From NCBI GenBank assembly GCA_038893995.1, contig JAWAQK010000008.1, positions 1-57,097 on the forward strand: a DNA stretch of 57,097 bases, written 5' to 3'. Below are positions 3,203 to 43,681 of the stretch, piece after piece (the first letter of the stretch is position 1; the number at the start of each line of letters is the position of its first letter). Below the pieces are notes generated by a model. The model did no database searches and had not been told where the DNA came from. It saw nothing but the letters and a program-made list of their open reading frames with translations. Both the position numbers and the translations under genes were made by a program. The DNA comes from Candidatus Thorarchaeota archaeon. GTDB taxonomy: Archaea > Asgardarchaeota > Thorarchaeia > Thorarchaeales > Thorarchaeaceae.

Positions 3203-5533
3203 GTGGTCCAATTGCAGAGTCCGAAACTGCTCTTTGAGATTGAAGATGATATCAATACGAGTGCCATTGCTACTGGTGATGTCACTGGTTCCGGCCTTCC
3301 GGAGCTTTGCACCGGTGGAAGAGACGGTATAATAAAGCTCTACGCAGCAGACTCGAATACCGTAAGACTGCTTGCCCAGCTTGATGTCCCCGGTAGCGTG
3401 CTGACAATCAGGATCGCCGACGTCAATGGTGATGGCAGGAACGAGATCGTAGTTGGGCGCAGTCTTGGAGTTGGAGAATCTCCGGGTGTCTCTGGGACTC
3501 TTCAGATCTACAGGTTTGTGAACAGCGGGCATCTCGAACTTCTCGCCGAGCACCCCATCGACAGATTTGTGACCAGTGTATACGTTGTTGATGTCACCGG
3601 TGACGGTAGGGACGAGATCGTAGCCGGAGGCAGTGACTCTACTCTCAGAGTACTGAGTGTCAGTAGTGACAACATGATAACCGAACTTGTGAACTATCAG
3701 TTGGACGACATGCCCCTCTCCATAGGCATCTGTGATGCCGACGGGGACGAGGTCGACGAACTCGTGGTAGGTAATCGAGACAAGACTGTGAGGGTATTCA
3801 AGATACATGACCGCGCCATCGAGCAGATCGAGATGCTAAAGCTCCCATCTCCAGTCATTTCGATTGCATCCGGTGACATCTTGGGCGATCGTAAGATGGA
3901 ACTGGGTGTGGTGACGCATGATGGGTCAATCAGGGTCTACAGGAATGAAGAGAATCATCTGGAACTATTCTCGACCCTTGAGGGCGTCAAGGCTCTCTCA
4001 ATCCGCATATCTGAACTGAATGCCGACCACATGGACGAGATTGTCGTGGCAACTTCCGACTACAAGATCGTCTACTACAACCTCTACATGGGTGAGCTGA
4101 GAGAGATTGCGAGGGTCGAGGTTGGCAGCAAGATACTCTCAATCGCCATTGGTGACGTGGGTGGTGACGACCTCAAGGAGATACTGGTCGGTGTCTCCGG
4201 AGGCCCACTCAAGGTCATTCAGGGACTATACCAGGTCGTGCCCCGATTTGATGTAGAGCCTCTGACGGAGACAGGCACAACGCTCACTGGTCGCCTCACG
4301 GTCATCAATGTCTCTGACAGGCCCATAAACGGGATAACCGGAAAGATATACTGGTTCCCCAAAGACCACCTGGAGATCGACAAGCAGCAGATACGTCTTG
4401 ACCTCGCACCGGGCGAACGGAAGACGGTCGAGATCGTCTTAACGCCCCTCGTTGAGGGCACAGTGATAGTCCGTCCCATCGTCCTGATGTGGACCGACGA
4501 GAGGGGACAGGTCAACCAGGTCACGACGCCGGAGACCGCCATATCTGTCCAGATGGGCAAGGCGTATGCCGCACCTGTTGCAGAGGCTCCGGCCATCACC
4601 AAGACTGACTTCACTCCCTCGACTCCCGTCAGTACGGAGACTGTGACCCAGCAGCCCGTGGCGGCTGTCGAAGGTACCGGATTCAGCCCCCTTACAGCGG
4701 GCGAGATCTCGAAGATTGAGCAGGAGTTCTCTGGGGTCAGCGAGGAGTCACTCAAGGCCGCAGAAGGCCTATTTGACAGACTCTTTGGCAATGACAGTGC
4801 CGAAGTACCCGACCCGGGCGCACTGGCGGACATTAGGCGTCTTGTGACTGAATCGCCTGTTGTGAGTGAGGCAGGACCAGCCCCTGCGGCTGAAGTTCCG
4901 GAGACCGCCGTGGAGAGCGCTCTTGTCACCGAGATAAGGTCGAGAACGCCGAAGCCGCCTATGCCTGGTACTTCGCCGGAGAGCTATAGCTATCTCTTCA
5001 AGACTATGATAGTCGGTGAGGGTGCGGTTGGGAAGACGGCCCTCGTGAATCGTTACGTGAGTGGAACATTTGAACGAGACTACAAGACCACAATCGGCTC
5101 TCAATTTGCGGTGAAGCTGACACATATCTTTCCACCAGACTCGCCCTACGCAGTCGGAGTGAAGATACAGGCATGGGATGTTGCAGGTCAGAGCAGATTT
5201 GCGGCCGTCCGTGGGATGTACTACAAGGGCGCAGCAGGCGTGATCCTCGTCTTCGATGTGACTAGGAGGAGGTCCTTCACAGAGCTATCACGCTGGGTCC
5301 AGGAGGCTGATGAACACATTGGGTTCCGCGTACCAATGGTCTGTGTAGGAAACAAGGTGGACCTGCCAGACCGTGCGGTCAGCTCCGAGGAGGCAAAGGC
5401 CTGGGCCGAGAGCAACGGATTTCTCTACATGGAGAGTTCAGCAAAGACTGGTAGGGGCGTCGCGGACATGTTCACCGTGTTGGCTGAGTTGATGTATCGC
5501 GAGGCCAAGAAGAGCGCCAGTGCAAAGAGATAG
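3203..5533 (+). CDS. FG-GAP/VCBS-repeat beta-propeller + Ig-like domain + low-complexity linker + C-terminal Rab-like small GTPase fusion
   Basis: Seven DxxGDGxxE(I/L)VVG-type repeats; GTPase motifs GEGAVGKT, YKTTIG, WDVAGQ, NKVD, SAK. Confidence 0.88.
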   Translation: MVQLQSPKLLFEIEDDINTSAIATGDVTGSGLPELCTGGRDGIIKLYAADSNTVRLLAQLDVPGSVLTIRIADVNGDGRNEIVVGRSLGVGESPGVSGTLQIYRFVNSGHLELLAEHPIDRFVTSVYVVDVTGDGRDEIVAGGSDSTLRVLSVSSDNMITELVNYQLDDMPLSIGICDADGDEVDELVVGNRDKTVRVFKIHDRAIEQIEMLKLPSPVISIASGDILGDRKMELGVVTHDGSIRVYRNEENHLELFSTLEGVKALSIRISELNADHMDEIVVATSDYKIVYYNLYMGELREIARVEVGSKILSIAIGDVGGDDLKEILVGVSGGPLKVIQGLYQVVPRFDVEPLTETGTTLTGRLTVINVSDRPINGITGKIYWFPKDHLEIDKQQIRLDLAPGERKTVEIVLTPLVEGTVIVRPIVLMWTDERGQVNQVTTPETAISVQMGKAYAAPVAEAPAITKTDFTPSTPVSTETVTQQPVAAVEGTGFSPLTAGEISKIEQEFSGVSEESLKAAEGLFDRLFGNDSAEVPDPGALADIRRLVTESPVVSEAGPAPAAEVPETAVESALVTEIRSRTPKPPMPGTSPESYSYLFKTMIVGEGAVGKTALVNRYVSGTFERDYKTTIGSQFAVKLTHIFPPDSPYAVGVKIQAWDVAGQSRFAAVRGMYYKGAAGVILVFDVTRRRSFTELSRWVQEADEHIGFRVPMVCVGNKVDLPDRAVSSEEAKAWAESNGFLYMESSAKTGRGVADMFTVLAELMYREAKKSASAKR

Positions 5534-8121: not shown

Positions 8122-9222
8122 ATGAGCAACGAGTCGGGGGTATCGGCCCACATCCAAAGCATTCGATCAGTGTCCCACGACAAGGACCCTGATGGAGTGT
8201 GCTCTGCGGCAATCGTCTGTCGTTACGCCAAGAGAAAAGGTTTGAGCTACTCGGTCACCCTGTGCGACTATGGCGACTTGGCAGAGACCTTCGCCGCGTT
8301 AGCAACCCTGAGGAACACACTACTTGTGGTCACAGATCTCGGTGTCGATGCCAGGTCTTTGCCTGCAGTACTGGAGGCCCTCAGACGGGCATCCAGTCAG
8401 GGTTGCATGGTCGCTTGGTTTGACCATCACCAGTGGCCAGAGAAGTCCATTCGAGGTCTACTGGGCCTTGAGAAGAAGCCTCTGCTCAAGTTGCGCCAGG
8501 ACATGTGCGCGGCAGAGATCACGCACAGAGTTCTAATGCCAGACGACGAAATCTCCAGAGAACTTGCATCAGTCGCTCGCGATTCTGACTTCAATATTCG
8601 CGAATTCGCCTCATCGTCCGCCCTCGCCGATGTGATCTCACTGCTCCGATTCGCTGCACTGGAGTCGAAACAGGACACGACTACAGTCCTGACGCCTCTC
8701 TTGCAGGTCCTATCGGATGGGGGTGTGGCCGCCGTGTGGGACCAGACACGGATGAGGCTGAGAGATGACCTACTCGAGAAGAGAGTCCAGAACTATCGTC
8801 GGGAACGCAACAAGAAGATGAGGAAGGCCCTCCTCGGTCATCAGGATCTCGAGATACACGGTCGTCTAGTACGAGTCGTAGAGCTTCCCGTCGGTGTCAC
8901 CACGACAGACATGGGCGTCTTTGCCTCTGATCCCGCCAATCTAGACCTGGACGGGCACAGACTCAGCCCGGCAGACCTTCTTGTCACGATCAGTCCCGGG
9001 GGAACACTTGGTTTCAGACGTGCCAAGGACAACGTCTTATGCAATGAGGCGGCACGACTATTCAACGGAGGCGGCCATCCCTACGCCGCAGGCGGCGAGT
9101 ACGGAATGTACAGTGACTTTGTTGCTGCGAGCACCGATATCTTCTCTGTCCTGTCACAGAGCAAGAGCTGGGTCGTCGAGAGCCCACCTCATGCAGAAAC
9201 GGACGGAACTGACCCACAGTAG
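8122..9222 (+). CDS. DHH/DHHA1 family phosphoesterase
   Basis: HxKDPDG, TD, FDHH and GGGHPYAAG motifs. Confidence 0.85.
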   Translation: MSNESGVSAHIQSIRSVSHDKDPDGVCSAAIVCRYAKRKGLSYSVTLCDYGDLAETFAALATLRNTLLVVTDLGVDARSLPAVLEALRRASSQGCMVAWFDHHQWPEKSIRGLLGLEKKPLLKLRQDMCAAEITHRVLMPDDEISRELASVARDSDFNIREFASSSALADVISLLRFAALESKQDTTTVLTPLLQVLSDGGVAAVWDQTRMRLRDDLLEKRVQNYRRERNKKMRKALLGHQDLEIHGRLVRVVELPVGVTTTDMGVFASDPANLDLDGHRLSPADLLVTISPGGTLGFRRAKDNVLCNEAARLFNGGGHPYAAGGEYGMYSDFVAASTDIFSVLSQSKSWVVESPPHAETDGTDPQ

Positions 9223-10169
9223 CCATTCCCTGACGGACACTCGAAACCTCCACGTCTGGCGGCGCAGACGGACGTGCTCCACTTCTGCTCGAACGTACGG
9301 ACCATGCTACCGAGGACCACTCGTCCATCCGGATGGCTCATTGCAATGGTGCGGCGTACAGGAGAGACCCTGGCTGGCAACATCAGTGCGTATTCAGTAT
9401 CAACAGCAAACATCTGGTGACTAGTCTCTGGTATCTGACAGTGCCTGATACATACTGGGCATGGCAACCCGAGGCGTCTGGTATTGTCCACAACCCTGCT
9501 GATCAGACTTGAGAGCTTCCTGCCAGCGAAGTCATGATCTGGATGAGACACGATGGTCCTTACCCGGGCACCATGCATCGCTGCTGTGACAACAACGTGC
9601 TCGTACATTCTGCGTACCGAGACATTGCCAATCAGGTCTGAGAGCAGCAGCATCACTCTCACAGTGGAACCGTGGGTGATTCTCTCGGTCAGGCGCTCGA
9701 AGTGTGATGAGGTCACATCATTGTCTCTGGCTATGGCTTGCTCTTCATTACCGCCGCCCATCAGATAGTTGATAGTTCTCAGAGTCAGGTCGTCGATATC
9801 AACGGAATTCAGCATCTCCAATCTCTCTGTCAGCGATTTCTGCCGGGCGGTGAGTCTCGCGATGAGTCTGTCTACCATGTTCTCAACTGAAGATGCCACC
9901 ATCTCTCTGGTTGTAAAACAACAGATTGGCCTACTGAACCTGTTGATCAGCAGGAATCCCTGTTTCTCGAGTCTACGGATACACTTGTACACCCAATTTC
10001 CAGTGACCGGTCTTTCTCTGTTGCGATTCAGTGCTCTCGTAAGCTCATCGAGCGTGACTGACTTGTCCTGAACCGATGCCCTGATGACGACATCAATCAA
10101 CGCCATCTCCGAGTCACTGAGTTCTGTTGCAACAACGCTCAGTAAGCTACGGATGTCTTCTATCGTCAT
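9189..10169 (-). CDS. TrmB-like protein (wHTH + coiled coil + PLD-like effector domain), paralog 3
   Basis: wHTH (WVYKCIRRLEKQGFL), heptad segment, C-terminal FAVD...FEQKW pattern; start estimated at MTIEDIRS. Confidence 0.65.
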   Translation of the reverse strand: MTIEDIRSLLSVVATELSDSEMALIDVVIRASVQDKSVTLDELTRALNRNRERPVTGNWVYKCIRRLEKQGFLLINRFSRPICCFTTREMVASSVENMVDRLIARLTARQKSLTERLEMLNSVDIDDLTLRTINYLMGGGNEEQAIARDNDVTSSHFERLTERITHGSTVRVMLLLSDLIGNVSVRRMYEHVVVTAAMHGARVRTIVSHPDHDFAGRKLSSLISRVVDNTRRLGLPCPVCIRHCQIPETSHQMFAVDTEYALMLPARVSPVRRTIAMSHPDGRVVLGSMVRTFEQKWSTSVCAARRGGFECPSGNGYCGSVPSVSA

Positions 10170-11076
10170 AGGTTGTCTCTCCGGTTTCCACCGTGACTCG
10201 AGTTCCACATGCAAACTCTTGGTCGAATACCTCTCCAATGTGGGCGATAAGACGATGGTTCGATAGGACAGGTATGTAGACCGAGACTGGGGGTCTTCTC
10301 ATCAGACTCAGAACGGTCCCCTCTCTCTCCAGACCTACGAATTCGTAAGTCATGGTGGTCTTGGAGCGAATGGCCATGTTCAGAGCCCCACTGGCAACGA
10401 ACGATGAGACCGGACGAAGGAGTGACCCGAGGATGTCTCGCTTGTCATTCCAATCACTCCTGAGTAGGATCTTGACATTGCACCCCATCCCGAGGATACG
10501 AGCGAGAATCTCATTGTCACTGTCTAGGAGGCGCATTTCCAAATCGGGCGAATGAATTCGAACGATGCTGCCTTCGTGCGCTCTTGAGAATATGTATTTC
10601 TCTACTAGCAGCAGGGTCGTCTCAATTCCCCTGGCCGTCTCAACTCGCTGCACAGAATAGTCGTTCCCAATGCTTCCTGTGACAGTGGACTCATGCCTGC
10701 GTTTCCACTCCTCGAGGACCTTCAATTGAGTCACGGTCCGATCCAGTTCGTCCATGATAGACTGTAGCACAGTTCTGACCCTCTTCTGTAGTGCCCTTCT
10801 CATAGTCGCGACATTCGCAGTATATCGGTGTCTGTATCCGGTCCTATCGACACTGATGTATTCCTCCTCCTCGAGTTCCATCAATAGGCTGTACGCGGCC
10901 GATTCTCGTATCTTGCTTGATGGATATGTTTGACTGAGCATGTCATACAACACTGAGAATGGTACTTGGTCCTGTGTCTTGCTGGCCCTGAGTAGTACCG
11001 AGAGTACTCTGAATCTCCATTCATCTTCCCTGATCCCCAGATGCTGAGGCGTGACTGAAGATACTGGACGGTCCAT
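10147..11076 (-). CDS. TrmB-like protein, paralog 2
   Basis: wHTH (AYSLLMELEEEEYI...RHRY), coiled coil, GIETT...A.EGSIVRI, FDQEF; start estimated at MDRPV. Confidence 0.65.
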   Translation of the reverse strand: MDRPVSSVTPQHLGIREDEWRFRVLSVLLRASKTQDQVPFSVLYDMLSQTYPSSKIRESAAYSLLMELEEEEYISVDRTGYRHRYTANVATMRRALQKRVRTVLQSIMDELDRTVTQLKVLEEWKRRHESTVTGSIGNDYSVQRVETARGIETTLLLVEKYIFSRAHEGSIVRIHSPDLEMRLLDSDNEILARILGMGCNVKILLRSDWNDKRDILGSLLRPVSSFVASGALNMAIRSKTTMTYEFVGLEREGTVLSLMRRPPVSVYIPVLSNHRLIAHIGEVFDQEFACGTRVTVETGETTYDDRRHP

Positions 11077-11101
11077 CTCGGAATGACACTGCATCGATAG
11101 T

Positions 11102-12127
11102 TCACCTGTTTTCTCGTGCGGCCTCAGAGATAGATCTAGTGAAGGGGCCCGGTCCAACTCCCAGCATGGAGATCTCTCGATCTCCTATCTGTGTCATGGG
11201 AATTGCGCTACTCCATGCTCTATCAAACTCCCTCACGAGATCGTCTATCAGGTCTGCACTCGACTCCCTTGTATGGAGGACAGCGATGAGTTGATCATCG
11301 GGAATCATGAGGAGGGCCCTGTCCTTGTTCAGTATCACGAAATTGTAGCCGTCGATCTCAGACGATAGTCTCCACTCGAAGCTTACTCCTGCGTTCTTGA
11401 GTGCGTATACCTCCTGGACCGTAGATCGGATGTCCTGCTGGGCCAGCTGGGAGGCAACTCTTGCGTCTCCTCGGACCATTTCTGTACTCACGAGATATCT
11501 TATATCAGCGCCTCTTCTTGCGGCCTCGATGAACTTGACAGTTCTCTCGCCGATGCCAGTGACAAGTGGTCTCACCGAACCAACGAACAATCGGATCATG
11601 TCCCCCGTCTTTGCGCAAGATGCAAAGTTGTGCAACAGGATCCGATGCATGGCCTCGACACCTTCTACAATATGGTACTTGAGGTTCTGGACAACGCCCG
11701 ACGCACTGTAGACCAGCTGCTGAGCAAGTAGCCCGGGATCAATCTGTTCTATTGCCGAGACCTCCTGCTTCAGCTTCTCAATCTGTTCCATTCGCTGGCC
11801 AAGCGCTAAGGACTTCATCCTCTCGAGGCTACACGTAATGATGTCGACATCGGAGGAGTACGTCCTACGTGATGCAGCGTCCTCCGCCTTGACCAGACCA
11901 CGCCTCACCAGGAATCTCAGATGCCTCTGAATCGCTGCTGGGTGCGCTCGGGCGTGATCAACGCTGAGCCGTATCTGCTTGAGGGTCACAGTACCGGCTG
12001 TCGACATGGTCAACCTGAGTATCTCGCCCAATAGTGCGAGGGGACCGGATCCCTCTCTCAGTCCTTCCAGGCCTAACATGGCGAGCTTCGAATTCATGTC
12101 ATCAGAAGATCTGGAATCTGACAACAT
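11102..12127 (-). CDS. TrmB-like protein, paralog 1
   Basis: wHTH (IQRHLRFLVRRGLV...RRTY), coiled coil, AARRGADIRYL, FVILNKD, FDRAWSSA. Confidence 0.7.
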   Translation of the reverse strand: MLSDSRSSDDMNSKLAMLGLEGLREGSGPLALLGEILRLTMSTAGTVTLKQIRLSVDHARAHPAAIQRHLRFLVRRGLVKAEDAASRRTYSSDVDIITCSLERMKSLALGQRMEQIEKLKQEVSAIEQIDPGLLAQQLVYSASGVVQNLKYHIVEGVEAMHRILLHNFASCAKTGDMIRLFVGSVRPLVTGIGERTVKFIEAARRGADIRYLVSTEMVRGDARVASQLAQQDIRSTVQEVYALKNAGVSFEWRLSSEIDGYNFVILNKDRALLMIPDDQLIAVLHTRESSADLIDDLVREFDRAWSSAIPMTQIGDREISMLGVGPGPFTRSISEAARENR

Positions 12128-12275: not shown

Positions 12276-13508
12276 TCAGGGTCCCGTTACGGCTATGCTC
12301 CTGAGGTACCCCACTCCGATATTGATCACCATTGGCAGAAACCTTGTCAGCAGACCGACAGCAGTTGATACGTTCGCATGTCCCTGAATAAGATCGTTGA
12401 GCGTCTGTGCATCGAGTTGTTTCAGGACAGTCTCAGCTGCGTCTATGGGATCGTTCAGCATCGAGTACTTGGTCACTGCCCACATTCCGCGGCCAGTGTT
12501 CTGGATGCTATAGGCCAATCTGGTCTTCCTGTATTCTATCTCGTACTTCCTCACACTTGACCTTGAGAAATCACCCGTGTCAGCCATCCTCTTTGCATGC
12601 TTGGCCAGAAGGGCCCCCGCATGAAGACACGTCGTCACACCGCCTCCGACTATCGACGATACCTGTCCTGCAGCGTTGCCACAGAGTGCAACTCCGGCGT
12701 CAGTAAACCTGGGAATGAGTCCCGCACACGGTACAACGCCCCCATTGACGGCGACCACTCTGGCGTTCTGGGTCTCAGGGTGCTCTCTCATGAACTTGTA
12801 CAGGACATCCCTCATGGGCGGCAGCCTCTCCCAGGTCTGTCTATGGGTCGGCACCCTTCCTATACCGAGGTTTGTCTCGGTCTCAGACCTGGGATAGAGC
12901 CAGAGGTATCCGAGGCCCACATCCTCTCCGACATAGAAGTAGGCCGTCGATGGGTCTAGTCCCTTACAGCCAGCAAGCTTGAACCTATATCCGTAGCTGA
13001 GCAACCATCTTGGATGGCGGAACCCTGCTGTTTCTGAGACCCTGCTGTACGAACCATCTGCACCGACGGTCAGTCCTGCGGCATACTCTCTCCCGTCTGA
13101 ACATCTGACCCCACACACGTGTCCCGCATCGAAGATCACAGACTGGACCGGAGACTTGTAGATGAACTCTGCACCATGGGAGATTGCACGGTCCCTCATC
13201 AGCTCCTTACATCTGCTTTCGTCAAGCAGATACGAGTTTCCCAAGAGTCGTCGGTCGACGACTATCTTCGAGCCTGTGTCGAGACTCTCTCCCACTATCG
13301 CGGTGAACTTGTTGCTCACGTATTCTGAACCCGGTCTGACACCAAGCATTCTGATTGCCTTCTCGGTGACGAGCTCTCCCATGAGCGCATCTGTCACAGA
13401 GTTCCTCCTCTCGAGCACGAGCGTCCTGAGTCCAAGAGCAGCAGCTCTCTGGGCAGTCATGAGCCCGGCGGGACCAGTTCCTGCGATCGCCAAGTCGTAG
13501 TCCGTCAT
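12276..13508 (-). CDS. Geranylgeranyl reductase family FAD oxidoreductase (DGGGPL reductase-like)
   Basis: YDLAIAGTGPAG, GADG..S, GYLWLYP, GNAAG.V....GGG motifs; start at MTDYD. Confidence 0.85.
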   Translation of the reverse strand: MTDYDLAIAGTGPAGLMTAQRAAALGLRTLVLERRNSVTDALMGELVTEKAIRMLGVRPGSEYVSNKFTAIVGESLDTGSKIVVDRRLLGNSYLLDESRCKELMRDRAISHGAEFIYKSPVQSVIFDAGHVCGVRCSDGREYAAGLTVGADGSYSRVSETAGFRHPRWLLSYGYRFKLAGCKGLDPSTAYFYVGEDVGLGYLWLYPRSETETNLGIGRVPTHRQTWERLPPMRDVLYKFMREHPETQNARVVAVNGGVVPCAGLIPRFTDAGVALCGNAAGQVSSIVGGGVTTCLHAGALLAKHAKRMADTGDFSRSSVRKYEIEYRKTRLAYSIQNTGRGMWAVTKYSMLNDPIDAAETVLKQLDAQTLNDLIQGHANVSTAVGLLTRFLPMVINIGVGYLRSIAVTGP

Positions 13509-13713
13509 CTTGTTACCACTGCAGGGACTGCAACTATCGTTTCTAAACATGTCTCCGCTGAACAGTGCGGCAATCTGAGATGGACTACAGACGCTCCTCG
13601 AGTGACTGCCTGCAGACTCCCCCTACAGATGCTCAAAGGCCTCACCATCATGTCTATATCATACTATGACTGCCATACCCCCCTCATCGATATCTCCAGG
13701 GAAATGGGTGACA

Positions 13714-14550
13714 ATGAAACCCCGGACTGTCGCGTACTCAATCTATATGATCCTCTCCATAATGATCAGCCTGTCAGTGTCCACCATTCCGTCTCTGGTC
13801 CTGATTCTGATTGCGTTTCAGAGAACAGACACAATTGTGACTGAAATCATTCCCCCGTTGTCTATCGTTCCCATGTCGCTACATTCACTCGCGGGGGACC
13901 TTCTTCCCGCCCTCTTCTATGAGAAGTTCTGGTTCATTGTGATGCTGATACCGGTCGTGATGGTAGCCTACGGCGTGTTCCTCGCCCTGCTTGCCGTCAT
14001 GTTCAGACTGTCGAGACGACTCGTACCGAATCTGCCAGACGGATACTATCCGAAACACACCGAAGACTGGCTGATCTACGAGTACTTCGAGGTATACTAC
14101 ATCCTCTTTGAGCGGTTTGCATCATTCTTCTCCGTCTTTCTCAACACTAGGCCGAGACATATGCTATTTGGTGCGAAGATTGGTAAGAACACGATCGTGG
14201 GCAATGGCAGGCTGTTCAACCCCGAGAGAACTATCATCGGCGAAAACTGTTTCTTTGGCTATAACGCAATCCTGAGTGGTCATGTCTACGAGGGTGATCG
14301 ACTCTATCTCAGGACGGTGAGACTTGGTAACAATGTCACAGTTGGGGCAAATGCGGTCGTCCTCCCAGGTGCGGACATTGGTGACAACGTGATCATTGCA
14401 GCCAACAGCACGGTCCCGAAGGACCGAGTCATCCCCCCGAACTCCATATGGATTCACGGAAAGTCGATTCCGAGAGATAGTTCGTCCAAGACAGACACAT
14501 CAGCCCATAGTGGGCTTGAGGGTCCGTTCGATGATGCCGGCTCCAGATGA
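13714..14550 (+). CDS. Membrane-bound left-handed beta-helix (hexapeptide repeat) acyltransferase, Pls/PosA terminal-domain-like
   Basis: Two hydrophobic segments, then LPDGYYP..WL, LFGAKIGKN and hexapeptide repeats (VTVGANAVVLPGADIGDN). Confidence 0.75.
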   Translation: MKPRTVAYSIYMILSIMISLSVSTIPSLVLILIAFQRTDTIVTEIIPPLSIVPMSLHSLAGDLLPALFYEKFWFIVMLIPVVMVAYGVFLALLAVMFRLSRRLVPNLPDGYYPKHTEDWLIYEYFEVYYILFERFASFFSVFLNTRPRHMLFGAKIGKNTIVGNGRLFNPERTIIGENCFFGYNAILSGHVYEGDRLYLRTVRLGNNVTVGANAVVLPGADIGDNVIIAANSTVPKDRVIPPNSIWIHGKSIPRDSSSKTDTSAHSGLEGPFDDAGSR

Positions 14551-14649
14551 ACCGATCGACATGAGCGCGAGTGTCCTGAGGATACCAGATAAGGGTCCAG
14601 ACTCCCGTTGGATTACTTCATAACACCTCGTAATGTATGTACTGACCAG

Positions 14650-16107
14650 ATGACGCGAGAGAGACCAGCCTACGCTCCCAGGAAGTATCAGTCGTACGTC
14701 CTGGAGCGGATCCGATCAAGCAGAGGCAGGAATGTCCTGGTCGAGCTAGACTGTGGTCTCGGGAAGCGATTCATAACGCATCAGTTGGTTGCAGAGATAT
14801 TCCCTGAACTGAGCTTTCTCATCGTAGTCCACTCGACATCATCGTTGGTTGAAACTCTGGACTATCTGAGGAGGGAGTATGGGATTGACGAGGGACAGCT
14901 CGGTGAGCTCTCCTCTCGGATCAGTTCTCCGAGAAGGCTGCGAGTGTTAATGGAGAGGCGTGTTGTAGTGACAACGCCCCAGGTCCTCACCCGGGTCCTG
15001 GAGGACCATCCTGAGGCGGCATCCCGATTCGACGCTGTGATTGTGAACGAGATAGACACACTGGTTCGAAGAGTTGGTGACAGCGTGAGCCTAGTGTACC
15101 CATGGTCGACCCTATTCTCAATGCTTGAGGGAAAGTGGATAGTTGGCATGAGCGGGACTCTGCGAGACGACCATGCGGTATTCAATGATAAGCAGCTCGA
15201 GATAAGGAACGAACTGGTCACTCTGAAGCAGGTCCTGCTTGGCGCTGAGCTGATTACCATGGACGAACTCTACGGTAGCACAGACGTCGAACAGTTTCTG
15301 GAGCCGACTGTCATCAGAGTGGTTCATATTGACGATCGGAACATACGCGCAATCGCCCTGGTGCTTGACGAACTCATTCAGTCCACCCGTTCAGAGATAG
15401 TGGCGGAACTTGTCAGAGATGGAAATGAGGAACTCGTAGAGGGTGATATCCGACGGATCCACCTCATGCTGTCGAGGCTGCCTGTGTCGGACGAGGTCAA
15501 AGGCAGGTACTCCGCACTCCTGATGCTGAGGAAGTACGTGTATGGAATGCCCCCCTCCAGTTTCATCCGAATGTTCCATAACGAGTACTTGGCGCACTAC
15601 TTCAATCTGCGCGGGATGGCATCGACCATTCCCGAGGTGTCCTCGAAGACAGTAGAGGTCCTCCGTCTGTCCAAGTCAAGACCCAAGACAGTCGTACTGA
15701 CTTCCTATCTTGAGATGGTTGACCAGATACGCGAGACGCTGGAGCGCTCCGGTATTTCCGTACTCACGCTCACGGGTCGTTCTCATGATAAGGCCGATGT
15801 CCTCAATGCCTTTCGCAACGACCCCTCTGCTCGGGTATTGGTCATGTCGCCAGTCGGCGAGAGAGACCTTGACATGCCGCAGGCGGACCTGATGATAGTA
15901 TGCGATGTCATAAACACGCCCAAGACCATGTACCAGAAATTCAAGCGTACACGGGGAGGTGAGGTCGTCATCCTGGCATATGCCGGCACATCGGAGACAC
16001 GGAAGGTCGAGCGTCTCGTCAAGTCTGTCCTTGATCGCTATCCGTGGTCGACGACCGTGTCTCCAGAGACGTCAAATTCCGATGACTGGCAGGGAGAGTT
16101 TCATTAG
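14650..16107 (+). CDS. SF2 (Hef/FANCM-like) helicase-fold protein with degenerate motifs
   Basis: PRKYQ (Q-motif), LDCGLGKR, TTPQ, VNEID, GMSGT, VGERDLDMP, QKFKRTRG. Confidence 0.75.
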   Translation: MTRERPAYAPRKYQSYVLERIRSSRGRNVLVELDCGLGKRFITHQLVAEIFPELSFLIVVHSTSSLVETLDYLRREYGIDEGQLGELSSRISSPRRLRVLMERRVVVTTPQVLTRVLEDHPEAASRFDAVIVNEIDTLVRRVGDSVSLVYPWSTLFSMLEGKWIVGMSGTLRDDHAVFNDKQLEIRNELVTLKQVLLGAELITMDELYGSTDVEQFLEPTVIRVVHIDDRNIRAIALVLDELIQSTRSEIVAELVRDGNEELVEGDIRRIHLMLSRLPVSDEVKGRYSALLMLRKYVYGMPPSSFIRMFHNEYLAHYFNLRGMASTIPEVSSKTVEVLRLSKSRPKTVVLTSYLEMVDQIRETLERSGISVLTLTGRSHDKADVLNAFRNDPSARVLVMSPVGERDLDMPQADLMIVCDVINTPKTMYQKFKRTRGGEVVILAYAGTSETRKVERLVKSVLDRYPWSTTVSPETSNSDDWQGEFH

Positions 16108-16161
16108 CGTTATAAGAACTTCAGCAGACACTCGTTCCAGCGAACGGCCGGGGTATCCACA

Positions 16162-16584
16162 TTGCAAGATGCAATCACTGTTGGCACGGATGTTGTAGAG
16201 GTCTCACGCTTCAGGCGACTACCATCTGGTCCACAGTTTTTCCGGAGAGTGTTTACAGATAGGGAGCTCTCCTACTGCCTGAGCCATCCCGATCCTGCGC
16301 CCCACATGGCAGCAACTTTTGCCGGCAAGGAGGCGGTCTGGAAGGCCATCCGAGGTGCTGTGCCAATCAGGGAGATAGAGATCCTTCACGACGAGAAGGG
16401 CGCACCGTATGTTCAACTTGCTCGTGATACGGGACTTGTCGTGTCAGTGAGCCTGGCCCACTCTTCACGCGATGCTGTGGCAGTAGCGATAGCCAGTGAT
16501 CGATCCCTTAAGGACGCGTCTGTCAGGCCTTCACTAGAGTCAGCATCTCACTCCATTCTGAGAGGTGAAATGATTGACCACTGA
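16162..16584 (+). CDS. acpS: Holo-[acyl-carrier-protein] synthase (4'-phosphopantetheinyl transferase)
   Basis: VGTDVVEV, FTDRE, FAGKEA.WKA, GAP, VSLAH motifs. Confidence 0.9.
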   Translation: MQDAITVGTDVVEVSRFRRLPSGPQFFRRVFTDRELSYCLSHPDPAPHMAATFAGKEAVWKAIRGAVPIREIEILHDEKGAPYVQLARDTGLVVSVSLAHSSRDAVAVAIASDRSLKDASVRPSLESASHSILRGEMIDH

Positions 16585-18409
16585 TCGACCTACCCTGGAC
16601 GAGATCTTGAACGAGGCAAGGAAGAACCCGTCCTATCTGAATCTGTGGAACGCACATAGACAGATTCGCAGACTGGAGTCAATGAGGCCTGACGGAAAAC
16701 GTCCAGAATTGAGGACTGCGGTCATAGGCTCATCAACACTCGACCCCCTTGCTGCGTGTCTTGACACCCTGATATGGCTCGAGGGGTTCTGGTCAGAACT
16801 GTATGTTGGGGGATTCAACCTCTACCGACAAGAGTCGCTAGATCCATCATCACCCCTCTATCGATTCCGCCCTGATATCGTGATCCTGAATGTTGATGCT
16901 TGGTCCTTGCTCGATCGGGAGTTCATCTCATCGTTCGTGAGGATGTCCCTTGAAGAACGAGTAGCGGCTCAGAAACACATGGTTGAGAGCCTGACATCCG
17001 TGGTGGGCGCACTGGTCAAGAACTCGTCAGCCACTGTGATCGTGAGTAACTTCATAGTTCCCAGCTTCACTCCCATCGGTATTGCAGACAACAGGCAGGA
17101 GATGGGCCTGAGAGAGTTCTTCTCTGGAGCAAACTCGATGCTGGAGGACCGGCTGCGACACGACGCAAGAGTCTTTCTGCTTGACCTGGATGCAGTTGCC
17201 GGAGAGTTTGGTAAGTCTCGCATGACTAACTGGAACACCTACTACAGGGGGTCTGTCCTCTACGGTGAGGACTTCTCGGTCGTCCTTGCCAGGGCGTATA
17301 TGCGATACATTCGGGCACTGAAGGGCAAGTCAAGAAAGTGCATAGTCTTGGATCTTGACAATACGCTCTGGGGAGGCATAATTGGAGAAGACGGATACGA
17401 CGGGATCAAGCTGTCGAACGTATCACCGGGTAATGAGTACATGGACTTCCAGAGAGCATTGCTCTCCCTCTACAGTCGGGGGGTGATCCTCGCGGTGAAC
17501 AGTAAGAACAACCCCGACGATGCCCTCCGTGTCATTCGCGAGCACCCCTATCAGTTGCTCAGAGAGGAACACTTCGCCGCCCTACGGATAAACTGGCAGG
17601 ACAAGGTTCAGAACATCCGCGAGATTGCTGAAGAGATCGGCATTGGCCTCGACAGCCTCGTGTTCATCGACGACAACCCTCATGAGCGAGAGCAGATGCG
17701 TCTGGCAGTCCCCGAGGTGTTGGTTCCAGAGTGGCCAAAGAATCCTCACCTCTACCGACAGGCACTCGAGTCGCTGGACGTGTTTGACGTCCTGACGATC
17801 ACACGAGAGGACATAGAGAGAGGTCAGATGTATGCAGGTCGTCGAAAGAGGGCCCAGCTGGAGTCGCAGGCGACCTCGCTGGAGGAGTTTCTCAGGAACC
17901 TTGGGCTGAAGGTGACAGTCCGACTGGCTGACGACTTCACCACCCCGCGTGTCACCCAGCTCATAAACAAGACCAATCAGTTCAATCTGACCACTCGTAG
18001 ATATACAGAGGCCGAAGTTCAGAGGCTGCGTGACTCCGACTCCTCGGCAGTGTACTGCATGAATGTGGAGGACAAGTTCGGTGACGAGGGACTTGTCGGT
18101 GTGGCCATCGTGAAGAAGTCCCCCGATGAGTGGTATATTGATTCATTCCTGATGAGTTGCAGAGTCATTGGTCGGTCCGCTGAAACTGCCCTTCTGGCCC
18201 GGATCGTGCGAGACGCGAAGGCTGCAGGAGTACGGTCGATCCGGGGTGAGTTCATTCCTACTAAGAAGAATCCCCCGGCACGTGACTTCTACGAGCGTCA
18301 TGGATTCTCGATGGTGTCTACCAGTCAAGACGGAACGGTGACCTGGACCCTAGACCTATCAGAGAAGTCGGTGGAAGTGCCAGAATGGATCGAGCTACTG
18401 GGAGAGTGA
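16574..18409 (+). CDS. fkbH: FkbH-like glyceryl transferase/phosphatase (HAD-IIIC + GNAT-like domain)
   Basis: KCIVLDLDNTLWGG, SKNN, FIDDNP.ER, KTNQFNLTT.RY, DKFGD.G, FLMSCRV. Confidence 0.92.
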   Translation: MTTDRPTLDEILNEARKNPSYLNLWNAHRQIRRLESMRPDGKRPELRTAVIGSSTLDPLAACLDTLIWLEGFWSELYVGGFNLYRQESLDPSSPLYRFRPDIVILNVDAWSLLDREFISSFVRMSLEERVAAQKHMVESLTSVVGALVKNSSATVIVSNFIVPSFTPIGIADNRQEMGLREFFSGANSMLEDRLRHDARVFLLDLDAVAGEFGKSRMTNWNTYYRGSVLYGEDFSVVLARAYMRYIRALKGKSRKCIVLDLDNTLWGGIIGEDGYDGIKLSNVSPGNEYMDFQRALLSLYSRGVILAVNSKNNPDDALRVIREHPYQLLREEHFAALRINWQDKVQNIREIAEEIGIGLDSLVFIDDNPHEREQMRLAVPEVLVPEWPKNPHLYRQALESLDVFDVLTITREDIERGQMYAGRRKRAQLESQATSLEEFLRNLGLKVTVRLADDFTTPRVTQLINKTNQFNLTTRRYTEAEVQRLRDSDSSAVYCMNVEDKFGDEGLVGVAIVKKSPDEWYIDSFLMSCRVIGRSAETALLARIVRDAKAAGVRSIRGEFIPTKKNPPARDFYERHGFSMVSTSQDGTVTWTLDLSEKSVEVPEWIELLGE

Positions 18410-18645
18410 GCGAAACGGATCCAGACACGTTACTCGAGGAAATTGTGTCCAAGGTCCTGCTCATCGACAGAGAGAGGATCAGTGACAGCCTGAGGAGAAA
18501 GGACTTCGAACCCTGGGACTCATTGGCGCATCTAGTGCTCATAAGTGAGATAGAGAACGCGTTTGGCGTGTTGTTCGAGGATGAGGAGATCGTCGACATC
18601 TGGACAGTGGGTGATCTTCGACGCGTGCTCAAGGCCAAGCTATGA
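18406..18645 (+). CDS. Acyl carrier protein
   Basis: 79-aa acidic protein with WDSL phosphopantetheine-attachment Ser, IENAFGV, TVGDL; GTG start overlaps the fkbH stop (GTGA). Confidence 0.88.
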   Translation: MSETDPDTLLEEIVSKVLLIDRERISDSLRRKDFEPWDSLAHLVLISEIENAFGVLFEDEEIVDIWTVGDLRRVLKAKL

Positions 18646-19092
18646 CTCTCTGTTCGGTCTTGTCAACCGCTGGACAGGTCGTGACGGATTTCCCGCCACC
18701 AGCGTCATCGGAGGGACGTCCCTGCTCACTACGGAGCCGGCTGCCACGATGGCGCCCGCACCCACTCTCACTCCCGGGAGGATTATGGCGCCTGCAGCTA
18801 TCCACGCTCCCCTCTCTATCACCACTCTTGCAGGTTCCTCCCTGAAGACGCCACTCAGTCTGTGAAACGCACTTGCACCTGAGTGCGCCATTATCTTGAC
18901 ACCAGGTCCGATCGATGCCCAGTCCTGTATCTCCACAAGCTCGGGATGCTCACTGTCTATCTCCACCAGGTATCCTATGAAGACACCCTTACCGATCTTG
19001 ACACCACAACGTCTGTACACGGAGGCCCTGAACTGATATACAGGTGCCAGCCAGGCCAGCACTCTGAGAAGTCTGCCAATGATCTTTCCCAT
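18640..19092 (-). CDS. Hexapeptide-repeat (LbH) acyltransferase, maltose/galactoside O-acetyltransferase-like
   Basis: GVKIGKGVFIG, IMAH, AIILPGVRVGAGAIVAAGSVV, VAGNP. Confidence 0.85.
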   Translation of the reverse strand: MGKIIGRLLRVLAWLAPVYQFRASVYRRCGVKIGKGVFIGYLVEIDSEHPELVEIQDWASIGPGVKIMAHSGASAFHRLSGVFREEPARVVIERGAWIAAGAIILPGVRVGAGAIVAAGSVVSRDVPPMTLVAGNPSRPVQRLTRPNRES

Positions 19093-19105
19093 TGAATGGT
19101 AGCCC

Positions 19106-19969
19106 CTACGAGTAGTATTCTCTTCTCCAGATCTCGCGTCGCAGATAGTCTCCAAAGGTCCAGTTATCTATGTCTCCCGTCAGGAGCAGGCAGAACCGAT
19201 GACCATCCGGCCACTCATGATGTCTCTTCCAGTATTCGACGGCCTGTGTGACCGTCGGACACCATCCGTCTAGCTGGCGACTCTGGTCCAGGAGTTCCTC
19301 GAGGCAGGGTCGATAGGCTGGTTGACCAATCCTGATTGGATGAAGATCCAGCATGAGAACGCCTCCCGCTCTTGCAGCGCTCTTGGCCTCTGTTCTCAGC
19401 CTCCTCGACATCTGCTCCGTCGTCATGTGCAGACGATCGACCATCAGGTCATCACTCCAGATGTTCAGGGGAATGAATGTGGTCGTCAGCTCCCTGTCGC
19501 CTGCCCTCACCTTGAAGAAGTGTCCCATGCCCCTGTACTCTGGTCTGTATCCGAACCCTGCGTCCCACAGGAGTCCAGCCCGGTCTATCAAGGCCGGCAT
19601 GTCGTCTGTGTAGTTGTCGTATGGCGCTCTGAACCCTCTGACCTCAATGCCCATTCGTCTGAGTACAGCAATACTCGTGAGCAGGTCGCGTTGCCTCTGC
19701 TGGGGAGATAGATGTGAATACCGAAGATGCACATGTCCGTGACTTGCGATCTCGTGACCTCTGGTCAGGATGAGTCTCACGATGTCAGGCCGCATCGATG
19801 CAATGCTTGAAACAGTCGGAAATGTGAACCTCGAGTCATATTGGTCGAGCACGTCAAACAGGCCCCGCAGGAGTCGCAGGAACTCGACCCTATGGAGCAG
19901 GTACATCCTCAGCAACTGCCGGGGTATTGACAGTCCCCACCTATTGATGAGTGTTGCTAAGTAGCTCAT
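19106..19969 (-). CDS. Polysaccharide deacetylase (CE4/NodB-like), apparently circularly permuted
   Basis: GHEIASHGHVH, GFRAPY, LDLHP; motif-1-like WPDG...LLTGDID located at the C-terminus. Confidence 0.8.
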   Translation of the reverse strand: MSYLATLINRWGLSIPRQLLRMYLLHRVEFLRLLRGLFDVLDQYDSRFTFPTVSSIASMRPDIVRLILTRGHEIASHGHVHLRYSHLSPQQRQRDLLTSIAVLRRMGIEVRGFRAPYDNYTDDMPALIDRAGLLWDAGFGYRPEYRGMGHFFKVRAGDRELTTTFIPLNIWSDDLMVDRLHMTTEQMSRRLRTEAKSAARAGGVLMLDLHPIRIGQPAYRPCLEELLDQSRQLDGWCPTVTQAVEYWKRHHEWPDGHRFCLLLTGDIDNWTFGDYLRREIWRREYYS

Positions 19970-20024
19970 CTGGCCCGTTCTCCCGCACTCATCACGCACA
20001 TCTACAATTCAACTGGGTGTTGGT

Positions 20025-20945
20025 CTACGGTGGTACGACGAAATTGGTCGCAATCACTCGCAATACTGCGTCAGTGATCTCACGACTTGTCCGGGAGTAG
20101 ACGTACTTGCAGAGTTCGATGAACTCGTTCGTGCGTGCCTCTGCATCCTCATTGCTGGCCAGTATCTTCTTGGCCATCTTGACGACGTTTCTTACGACCT
20201 CTTTGCCAGACGGATGCTCTCCGACAGCCCTTGCTGTCTCCTGCTCAATGCCCTGAATTCTACTCTTTATCCTGATGTCGGCGATATCGTCTGACCCCAT
20301 CGACTTTACTACGTCCATCAGGACATCAAGAACACCGTTATGTAGACCGCTTATGAGGGCCTCTACTTCGTAGGCTGTGAAGTTTATCGGCTTGCCGTCC
20401 ACCACGAGCTGCCATTTCAGATCGCTCGTGCGTTTGAGTTCAATGTTGCGGTTGTCTATGCTTATGATCTCCTCATAGAACCTGCTGTCAACACTGCTGA
20501 GGACTGCAGTCTTCAAGAGGGCGGCCTCTGTGATCTTCAGGGTTGCGCTGTTGCCCCCGTTCTTGACTACTATGCACATCTTGTCCTGGGGCGGAATCTT
20601 CTGAACATAGTCAGATGCAGGAGCAACCTGGACCGGAGGTAACCTCTTGAGAAGCTCAGCGAGATGTCGTATCTCGCTCTCCGTACAGTAGTATCGTTGC
20701 TTGTCTCCAGCCAGGACTATTCTGCCGTCGTCATCCCGTTCAAACTCGATTGTATGACCACCGCCCACATCAGTGGTCTTACGATACAACTGCTTGTAGT
20801 TCCTGGCGGTCTGGGCAAGCTTCTCAAGTGCGGCGGCGATCATGTGGGCCTCGCCATAGCCGATGGTTATCTCTTCCGACCCCTCAGTGGCGCGACCAAT
20901 CCCGAGAGCACCATCCATCCTTATCTTGACGTACATGTGGTACAC
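20025..20945 (-). CDS. Hypothetical protein with four beta-strand/helix repeats and a helical C-terminus
   Basis: Long ORF with typical codon pattern; internal repeats ending in E-(A/I/V)-x-x-L helices. Confidence 0.7.
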   Translation of the reverse strand: MYHMYVKIRMDGALGIGRATEGSEEITIGYGEAHMIAAALEKLAQTARNYKQLYRKTTDVGGGHTIEFERDDDGRIVLAGDKQRYYCTESEIRHLAELLKRLPPVQVAPASDYVQKIPPQDKMCIVVKNGGNSATLKITEAALLKTAVLSSVDSRFYEEIISIDNRNIELKRTSDLKWQLVVDGKPINFTAYEVEALISGLHNGVLDVLMDVVKSMGSDDIADIRIKSRIQGIEQETARAVGEHPSGKEVVRNVVKMAKKILASNEDAEARTNEFIELCKYVYSRTSREITDAVLRVIATNFVVPP

Positions 20946-21032: not shown

Positions 21033-21392
21033 TCAGATGGTGTCCGTGACATCAAAGGCCAGCTTGCCGACTTCCTTCGTTGTGAGGGATATGTCCAATT
21101 TGTGCTGTCCCGGGCTGAGGCTGGGAGCTTTTACATGCAGAGTGATCTCCACTCCCACCTTGATTGGAAATGCGTTGTTTGGGGCAATCTTTGATGCCTC
21201 TACCTCGGTACCCTCGGCTGAGATCTTCAGTGAATCTAGAGGATACTCAACGCCATCCACCTTTATTGGGTCGATACCGATGGCCGTGCCATTGCTTAGG
21301 GAGTTCTTTATCTTGAACTCGAAGCCAAGATCGGTGTTCTTGAGGCTCCCCTTCACGTAGAGCTTCCTGAGCAAGAATACTGGGACTTGCAT
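21033..21392 (-). CDS. Conserved small beta-rich protein (LRKLYVKGSLKN family)
   Basis: MQVPVFLLRKLYVKGSLKNT start, Ig-like beta pattern; ATG at 21392. Confidence 0.75.
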   Translation of the reverse strand: MQVPVFLLRKLYVKGSLKNTDLGFEFKIKNSLSNGTAIGIDPIKVDGVEYPLDSLKISAEGTEVEASKIAPNNAFPIKVGVEITLHVKAPSLSPGQHKLDISLTTKEVGKLAFDVTDTI

Positions 21393-21595
21393 CTTGAATC
21401 TTCTCCATTCCCTGCTGTGGGATACAAGATGAAACGGACAGCGGCCATTTATAGATTCCGAACAGCACTGAGTGACAGCGAGGACATGCATCCGTTCACT
21501 GGCGGTGTGATGTGCCATCCGACATGATCTCTCTGCCGGCCTTGGAGTGAGTCTCTCCGGAAGATTCTATAACACATCCGATTGCGCTGCGGCCG

Positions 21596-43350: not shown

Positions 43351-43681
43351 CGTGAACACCAACCAGACCTGACTCCGCCACACGAAGAGGGACCTACGGA
43401 TCGCGGGAGCGACGGGTATAGACTACGTCTCGACTGGAGTCTGACAGAGTGGGGGACTAGGCCAGCCCCATCAAGACCCGTTCGAGCACTGTCGCATGAG
43501 TATGGATGAGACCGCACATATGTCCTTGGATATGTCGTCGACCAGAGGTGAGAGTCCATCAGCCGGACCATATAGTCTTTCACCAGTCCCCAGGACGTAC
43601 CTGCCAGAGTGCCATGCAGCAACACACCCGTCATCATCCCATGATGCCCTCCACGCCCATGAGGCCATCCCTCGGCAGAGC

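Follow-up and report, generated by a model that had tools for sequence, protein, structure and literature searches.

A five-gene FkbH and acyl carrier protein cassette in Thorarchaeota and a candidate route to N-glyceroyl glycans

We analyzed a 57,097-nucleotide stretch of DNA from a Candidatus Thorarchaeota archaeon (contig JAWAQK010000008.1 of assembly GCA_038893995.1; hereafter the window, whose numbering is used for coordinates below unless a contig is named) and found at 16162-19969 a cassette of five genes that is gained and lost as a unit. These genes encode an AcpS-type 4'-phosphopantetheinyl transferase (PPTase), an FkbH-like loader, a stand-alone acyl carrier protein (ACP), a left-handed beta-helix (LbH) acyltransferase of 150 residues and a hydrolase with the fold of carbohydrate esterase family 4 (CE4). 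With slightly better than even confidence, we propose that the cassette forms glyceryl-S-ACP in the cytoplasm and supports the replacement of an N-acetyl by an N-glyceroyl group on a glycan precursor. What we judge to be new is the coupling of FkbH/ACP chemistry to an LbH transferase and a CE4 hydrolase that is probably permuted.

Five genes inherited as a block

Three genes on the plus strand converge on two genes on the minus strand. The plus-strand genes are acpS (16162-16584; 140 residues from a TTG start; PF01648 and TIGR00556), fkbH (16574-18409; 611 residues; TIGR01686, with FkbH_N, HAD-IIIC and GNAT-like C-terminal domains) and acp (18406-18645; about 79 residues from a GTG start, with an alternative ATG start at 18385; PF00550). 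The minus-strand genes encode the LbH hexapeptide-repeat acyltransferase (18640-19092; 150 residues from an MGK start in an open reading frame [ORF] that is open to 19155; PF00132) and the CE4-fold, NodB/PuuE-like hydrolase (19106-19969; about 287 residues from Met11 in an ORF open to 19999; PF01522). A preliminary description of this DNA had pointed to tight coupling of acpS, fkbH and acp, which is plain from the gene ends. The acpS stop codon TGA (16582-16584) lies downstream of the fkbH TTG start (16574), giving an overlap of 11 nucleotides, and at the GTGA junction (18406-18409) the GTG at 18406, in the ACP frame, overlaps the fkbH TGA at 18407-18409. This GTG is favored as the acp start given that ACP orthologues are 77 to 84 residues long. 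The acp and LbH genes are convergent and overlap by 6 nucleotides. No membrane segment was found in any of the five proteins, so the chemistry should be cytoplasmic and act on soluble or lipid-linked precursors.

FkbH was sought in 60 relatives, and for 13 orthologues, from eight other genera, the surrounding DNA (about 18 kb each) was retrieved. Gene order was the same at 13 of 13 loci, namely, helicase, AcpS, FkbH, ACP, LbH, CE4 and unk306, with protein identities of 40 to 79%. Because this collinearity could be a matter of mere shared ancestry, relatives without FkbH were examined as well. The gene unk306 (20025-20945, minus strand) encodes a 306-residue protein that matches no known family. 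Of 36 family members, 35 carry it, and loci lacking the cassette were fetched around it. In all 12 of these loci unk306 abuts the gene for a superfamily 2 (SF2; Hef/XPB-like) helicase of 499 residues (here 14608-16107, plus strand, between the membrane LbH gene and acpS), followed by the membrane LbH gene (294 residues, 13666/13714-14550, plus strand) and a geranylgeranyl reductase (GGR) family gene (12276-13550, minus strand). The genes missing from the 12 loci are exactly acpS, fkbH, acp, the 150-residue LbH gene and the CE4 gene. In one genome (G020), a fragment of AcpS (residues 5-50) and a fragment of CE4 (residues 13-138, with stop codons) lie between the helicase and unk306 (L036:14688-15189), and this slot is a deletion scar of the cassette.

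Presence and absence across genomes follow the same boundaries. Close FkbH orthologues occur in 16 of the 36 family relatives and CE4 orthologues in 17, one of which is the G020 fragment; CE4 orthologues are confined to genera that hold FkbH, and G020 is the sole mismatched genome. The ACPS family is likewise represented in 16 of the 36, these being the same genomes that have a close FkbH orthologue, with the matches lying at the cassette. The preliminary description had counted two LbH acyltransferases and a deacetylase among the parts of the system, and synteny across related genomes divides this claim. The 150-residue LbH protein and the CE4 protein co-occur strictly with fkbH-acp in relatives, so that the refutation proposed in the preliminary description, a lack of such co-occurrence, fails for these two, and all five genes recur together in Hodarchaeota and in another archaeon, as described below. 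The Pls-like membrane LbH protein does not belong, given that it is present in 12 of 12 cassette-lacking loci, and it went undetected in three cassette-bearing ones (L014, L022 and L041). It persists where no ACP cassette or PPTase was found and so is not an enzyme devoted to using this ACP. The GGR was once taken as a hint of a lipid acceptor; its gene keeps its position in each of the 12 loci without the cassette, and it too is not a part of the system. The helicase, which the preliminary description had left out, and unk306 are excluded from the system by the same pattern of presence and absence.

In a proxy tree built from GGR, the helicase and unk306, genera with and without the cassette are interleaved, with several deep nodes weakly supported; the FkbH sequences from Thorarchaeota group in a single clade (support 1.000). 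The simplest history, given that the insertion slot is identical everywhere, is that the cassette was acquired once, ahead of the diversification of the family, and was then lost several times. In a sample of 400 genomes from the phylum, the cassette-type CE4 was found in 43 of 85 Thorarchaeaceae and in four other families at E values of 1e-107 or better; within one genus (g6), some genomes have it, some have a fragment and in some it was not found. Such patchy presence, the repeated losses, the fragments in G020, G375 and G378, and one orthologous ACP without its serine are what would be expected if the cassette were a leftover of horizontal transfer, now decaying and without a function in this genome. 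We find this barely credible, given that the five ORFs are intact here and at 13 other loci, with 40 to 79% identity and invariant catalytic residues, and that the single FkbH clade is consistent with long vertical retention.

Two observations concern ACPS-family proteins outside the cassette. In one relative (G005), a second, weak ACPS match lies beside a paralogue of FkbH. In two other Asgard families, ACPS domains occur inside giant open frames of 3,235 to 3,524 residues (G040:C24:28359-28877 and G051:C21:45562-45771), which possibly encode megasynthase-like proteins.

The carrier module and its candidate partners

AcpS, FkbH and ACP make up a carrier module that is complete in itself, and no other carrier-protein system was found in this genome. 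The AcpS protein has a single domain and scores 55.5 bits against PF01648 (cut-off, 25) and 63.2 bits against TIGR00556 (cut-off, 45.35); its 47.6 bits against the acpS equivalog TIGR00516 fall under the cut-off of 59.8. The genome has no further match to the ACPS family, and the ACP is its only PP-binding match. The ACP itself is borderline for PF00550 (21.3 bits, cut-off 20.8) and under the cut-off of every named ACP equivalog. Its phosphopantetheine serine stands in WDSL; across homologues the motif is WDS(M/L), in which W44 and D45 are invariant and S46 is kept in 14 of 15.

The loader is the best defined member of the module. It scores 316.4 bits against TIGR01686 (cut-off, 146.65) and 71.3 bits against the HAD-IIIC model TIGR01681 (cut-off, 35.75), and residues 41-408, covering the N-terminal and HAD parts, match the structural-genomics entry PDB 3SLR (BF1531) at an E value of 1.7e-50. 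Its nucleophile loop reads CIVLDLDNTLW. In an alignment of 24 homologues (34 to 65% identity), D260, D262 and T264 of this loop are invariant, as are S310, K344, D366 and D367 and the C-terminal S528-C529-R530. The intact DxDxT, the SCR cysteine and the serine of the ACP DSL motif had been described correctly. The closest FkbH relatives are almost all from Candidatus Thorarchaeota. The mechanism published for OzmB turns 1,3-bisphosphoglycerate into glyceryl-S-ACP by way of a cysteine thioester on the enzyme and its HAD phosphatase (PMC9057759; for the family mechanism, see also PMC7489565). Cys529 would correspond to the thioester cysteine of OzmB, an equation that we draw through this mechanism rather than through an alignment with OzmB, a protein of 366 residues that lacks the FkbH_N domain present here.

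The FkbH, OzmB and Tmn16 loaders of methoxymalonyl-ACP, tetronate and nonribosomal peptide synthetase (NRPS)-starter pathways resemble the cassette protein in the HAD-IIIC DxDxT, the C-terminal cysteine and the adjoining stand-alone ACP. Unlike those pathways, the cassette has no polyketide synthase (PKS), NRPS, FabH-like or dehydrogenase/methyltransferase partner; the consumer would instead be an LbH acyltransferase paired with a CE4 protein, in an archaeal host in which no other carrier-protein system was found. In agreement with the preliminary description, Pfam and NCBIfam profile searches found no ketosynthase (KS), PKS, NRPS or MBOAT gene in the window, and neither a FabH-like ketosynthase nor a dehydrogenase pair with an O-methyltransferase lies beside fkbH-acp in the window. 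The 91%-complete genome has no match to the Condensation domain or to MBOAT (PF03062), so the MBOAT partner expected of a Dlt-like carrier-protein system was not found. Its matches to the ketoacyl-synthase family PF00109 are partial and lie in ORFs of about 400 residues, which we read as thiolases rather than as a true KS.

Given that all characterized FkbH proteins serve PKS, NRPS or tetronate pathways, we considered that this one may load something other than plain glycerate, or that the ACP-bound unit may feed an unrecognized condensation enzyme in a pathway resembling those of natural products. MaoC, SDR and methyltransferase genes in related cassettes would modify an ACP-bound unit, and Hodarchaeota cassettes have an added VOC protein. 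We nevertheless hold this explanation to be very unlikely. No KS, FabH-like, Condensation or AMP-binding partner occurs in the cassette, a true KS or Condensation domain was not found in the genome, the Thorarchaeota cassette has no tailoring enzyme, and the HAD and cysteine residues on which the 1,3-bisphosphoglycerate route depends do not vary among the homologues.

The candidate for the transfer step is the 150-residue LbH protein, which scores 50.8 bits against PF00132 (cut-off, 27), has a nearly invariant histidine, H70 (numbered from MGK), in the loop that precedes its last coils, and is 53 to 79% identical in every archaeal cassette found. Its 33.1 bits against the LpxA model NF003657 lie far below that model's cut-off of 226. 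A predicted complex of an LbH trimer with ACP scored 0.53, compared with 0.02 for the best control, with a partner predicted local distance difference test (pLDDT) value of at least 80 and with at least 90% of contacts agreeing between runs. Among 80 solved complexes, 58 pass the mark applied to such scores, as do 2 among 110 mismatched pairs, and passing scores of 0.60 or less come from 7 of the 80 solved complexes and from both passing mismatches, so that the prediction weakly supports an LbH-ACP complex. Given that ACP complexes of LpxA and LpxD have been solved, the score may reflect likeness to these alone.

The hydrolase scores 55 bits against PF01522 (cut-off, 23.1), and its AlphaFold2 model (pLDDT, 88.9), which has the distorted beta/alpha barrel of the family, aligns by Foldseek with 3CL6, 1Z7A, 3RXZ and 3S6O at TM-scores of 0.62 to 0.69. 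Motifs MT2 (H87/H91), MT3 (R124-A-P-Y127) and MT5 (L219-H220) of the CE4 family are present and invariant, as is WSDD at 181-184, which we read as an MT4-like motif. Residues E83, H87, H91, R124-A-P-Y127, D218, H220, D276 and D278 are invariant in 13 orthologues.

We infer the following chemical steps and their acceptor from this gene set. AcpS would convert the dedicated apo-ACP to holo-ACP. The FkbH-like enzyme would form a (phospho)glyceryl thioester on Cys529 from 1,3-bisphosphoglycerate, with its HAD domain removing the phosphate, and would hand the glyceryl group to ACP to give glyceryl-S-ACP. The CE4 hydrolase would strip the N-acetyl group from an amino sugar of a glycan precursor, be it soluble or linked to a lipid, and the LbH protein would then move the glyceryl group from ACP to the freed amine, yielding an N-glyceroyl sugar. 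In the LpxC/LpxD (and LpxA) pathway of lipid A synthesis, a sugar is de-N-acetylated and then N-acylated from acyl-ACP by a trimeric left-handed beta-helix enzyme, and the cassette, as proposed here, would follow this same logic of deacetylation and reacylation. It differs from LpxC/LpxD in that its presumed deacetylase has the CE4 rather than the LpxC fold and its acyl group would be a C3 hydroxy acid rather than a fatty acid.

Acceptor and glycan context

The preferred acceptor comes from cassettes outside the family. A locus search with the CE4 alignment relied on two highly specific peptides and for that reason gave nothing beyond Thorarchaeota and a single Hodarchaeota record. This Hodarchaeota contig (L079, identical to L096) holds LbH, CE4, AcpS, FkbH and ACP genes in another order, with an additional gene for a VOC (glyoxalase-fold) protein. 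In three other genomes of the same genus (L089, L090 and L095), the cassette stands directly beside aglB and is divergent from it. The aglB gene encodes the N-glycan oligosaccharyltransferase. An archaeal metagenome-assembled genome (L087) has the order aglB, CE4, LbH, FkbH, ACP, AcpS with no VOC gene, on a contig that also carries Cdc6 and a DNA polymerase small-subunit-like gene. The CE4 proteins of these loci share the unusual C-terminal motif CxLLTGDIDN, and the CE4 subfamily with TGDID at its C terminus is common to all of the archaeal cassettes described here. Elsewhere (L094; G133:C205, 1199-4317), a cassette-type CE4 gene alone adjoins aglB, with no FkbH or ACP gene in the 13.5-kb contig.

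The VOC protein has 138 residues and adjoins the LbH gene (L079:5957-6373, and likewise in L089 to L092 and L095); its best Pfam match is Glyoxalase_4. Methylmalonyl-CoA epimerases of the VOC fold are known, and one may speculate by analogy that this protein could epimerize the ACP-bound glyceryl group. In the Thorarchaeota genome, the only candidate for such a partner is a VOC protein of 35% identity on another contig, which we did not treat as a member.

Outside the archaeal cassettes, the closest FkbH proteins (41 to 46% identity) are encoded in glycan loci that contain glycosyltransferases, a flippase or NeuB/NeuC/NeuA. There, fkbH always lies beside a small ACP gene and an acyltransferase gene of the LbH, GNAT or Antibiotic_NAT type, and often beside AcpS, CE4 or MaoC/SDR tailoring genes. 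An fkbH-domain gene, cj1302, is similarly placed in the Campylobacter jejuni flagellin glycosylation locus (cj1295 and cj1302), whose product, 5-N-(2,3-di-O-methylglyceroyl)-pseudaminic acid, differs from that proposed here in having an O-methylated glycerate, a nonulosonic acid and a bacterial host. In that organism an amidase-like protein was hypothesized to remove the N-acetyl group for replacement by glyceroyl (PMC3068675), and dimethylglyceroyl-pseudaminic acid was missing from a strain with a cj1302 pseudogene (PMC7099621). The amidase proposed there, Cj1295, has an aminopeptidase-like domain, compared with CE4 in the cassette. In Tannerella forsythia, a glycan attached to protein carries a naturally occurring N-glyceroyl pseudaminic acid, Pse5Am7Gra, the genetic basis of which has been called a major open challenge (PMC5378307); it is an N-glyceroyl sugar like the proposed cassette product, and no gene has been assigned to it.

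The likeliest destination of the N-glyceroyl sugar is the protein N-glycan, given that the cassette sits against aglB in other Asgard lineages. We further suggest, tentatively and with less than even confidence, that the cassette is a general route to N-glyceroyl amino sugars that in Asgard archaea decorates the AglB-dependent N-glycan through their sole ACP/PPTase system. If so, the ACP of these Asgard lineages would serve glycan tailoring and not fatty-acid synthesis. To our knowledge, ACP and AcpS are missing from most archaea. An ACP gene in an Asgard genome should not be taken to indicate fatty-acid synthesis of the bacterial type, given that the carrier system as a whole would have a single use and is gained or lost with its block of five genes, and this bears on the debate over the lipid divide. 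The surface glycoproteins of Tannerella and Campylobacter bear N-glyceroyl sugars to which no enzyme has been assigned, and the minimal cassette, with loader, carrier, transferase and deacetylase and no tailoring genes, would be the simplest system in which to reconstitute N-glyceroyl chemistry. The repeated adjacency to aglB in Hodarchaeota leads to a testable prediction for the structure of Asgard N-glycans.

Several findings weigh against the exchange of N-acetyl for N-glyceroyl on a glycan. The nearest solved relatives of the LbH protein are maltose and galactoside O-acetyltransferases (E value, 1e-13), which use acetyl-CoA, and because of this N-acylation and the use of ACP are readings of ours. 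Its curated relatives include WcaF-type O-acetyltransferases. These similarities suggest an alternative in which a Maa/WcaF-like LbH protein acylates a sugar hydroxyl to give an O-glyceroyl ester, with the CE4 protein trimming or editing acyl groups or acting on an ester, and CE4 enzymes do include O-deacetylating acetylxylan esterases. We consider the ester unlikely, given that the strict co-inheritance of CE4 and acyltransferase is most simply explained if CE4 makes the acceptor and that within a single clade of LbH enzymes the nucleophile may be N or O, which keeps similarity from being decisive.

The CE4 protein also departs from what would be expected of a sugar deacetylase. Its closest folds include that of PuuE, an allantoinase rather than a sugar deacetylase, and it is without the usual N-terminal MT1 motif (TFDD). 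At its C terminus, after the last beta-strand, stands an invariant T274-G-D276-I-D278, a motif that had escaped the preliminary description. The N-terminal WPDG...TFDVD segment of 3RXZ aligns on residues 262-278 of the CE4 protein, in an alignment that is short and nonsignificant, and a doubled CE4 profile compared with a canonical CE4 protein (from L088) gave no usable alignment, the two being too divergent. The C-terminal aspartate motif suggests a circular permutation of the NodB fold, and maybe a new one; circular permutation of one kind is known for PgaB-type CE4 enzymes (PMC5855634).

The genomic setting in Thorarchaeota points to no acceptor. The cassette sits among housekeeping genes, with no glycosyltransferase nearby in the window, and the aglB gene of this genome is on a different contig. 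The presence of NeuB in the 60 relatives does not track the cassette. One orthologous ACP (G015; L014:7922-8158) reads WDAMAHL, with alanine in place of the phosphopantetheine serine; either the protein is inactive as a carrier or the sequence contains an error. In the papers searched, we found no biochemical characterization of any step in any organism, which also counts against the proposal, and no paper there linked FkbH to archaea or to the biochemistry of polysaccharide acylation.

The missing glycosyltransferase would be accounted for if the acceptor were not a glycan but the head group of a membrane lipid or a small metabolite in solution, with the GGR and the membrane LbH protein taking part. 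Both genes adjoin the cassette in Thorarchaeota. Heptaprenylglyceryl-phosphate O-acetyltransferase is the best NCBIfam match of the membrane LbH protein and the second best of the cassette LbH protein, far under the cut-off in both cases. The nearest CE4 folds, PuuE and 3RXZ, are cytoplasmic enzymes, and the substrate of PuuE is a small molecule. We regard this acceptor as quite unlikely, given the distribution of the two neighbors described above, their absence from the Hodarchaeota and L087 cassettes, which abut aglB instead, and the location of FkbH homologues outside archaeal cassettes in glycan loci. A glycan precursor is the acceptor that we continue to prefer.

A nonulosonic acid was also considered as the acceptor in Thorarchaeota and set aside because NeuB (PF03102) was not found in the genome and, in the 60 relatives, does not follow the cassette. 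The FkbH paralogue of G005 mentioned above (L026; G005:C32:12338-13855) is 32% identical and lies about 17 kb from NeuB on the same contig; it belongs to a different cassette, probably in a nonulosonic-acid locus.

Neighboring genes and other features of the window

The membrane LbH protein consists of two hydrophobic stretches followed by an LbH domain, an arrangement that it shares with Pls/PosA, the C-terminal units of epsilon-poly-lysine synthetases. Its match to the Pls/PosA model TIGR02353 is partial and below the cut-off (54.5 bits, cut-off 423.1). The GGR gene, the divergent gene for this protein with two transmembrane segments and then the SF2 helicase gene (together 12276-16107) are kept at most of the Thorarchaeaceae loci that we examined, whether or not the cassette is there. 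On the other side, unk306 adjoins a gene for a 161-residue protein (21033-21518, minus strand), the sole match of which is to the HMG-CoA reductase N-terminal domain (PF25653). No RNA data set was listed as containing 16162-19999, and the DNA data sets that contain it are hot-spring metagenomes.

Upstream of the GGR gene, three tandem paralogues of about 340 residues (9189-12127), one with a weak DUF7436 match, recur in relatives as two to four copies at the same place. A protein of 776 residues (3203-5533) joins an FG-GAP/BBS-like beta-propeller to a C-terminal Ras-family small GTPase (PF00071, 155 bits), which we take to be of the eukaryote-like kind associated with Asgard archaea. Farther downstream, at 41506-51431, the window carries a bacterial-type UvrABC system with two tandem UvrA paralogues (958 and 968 residues), UvrB and UvrC.

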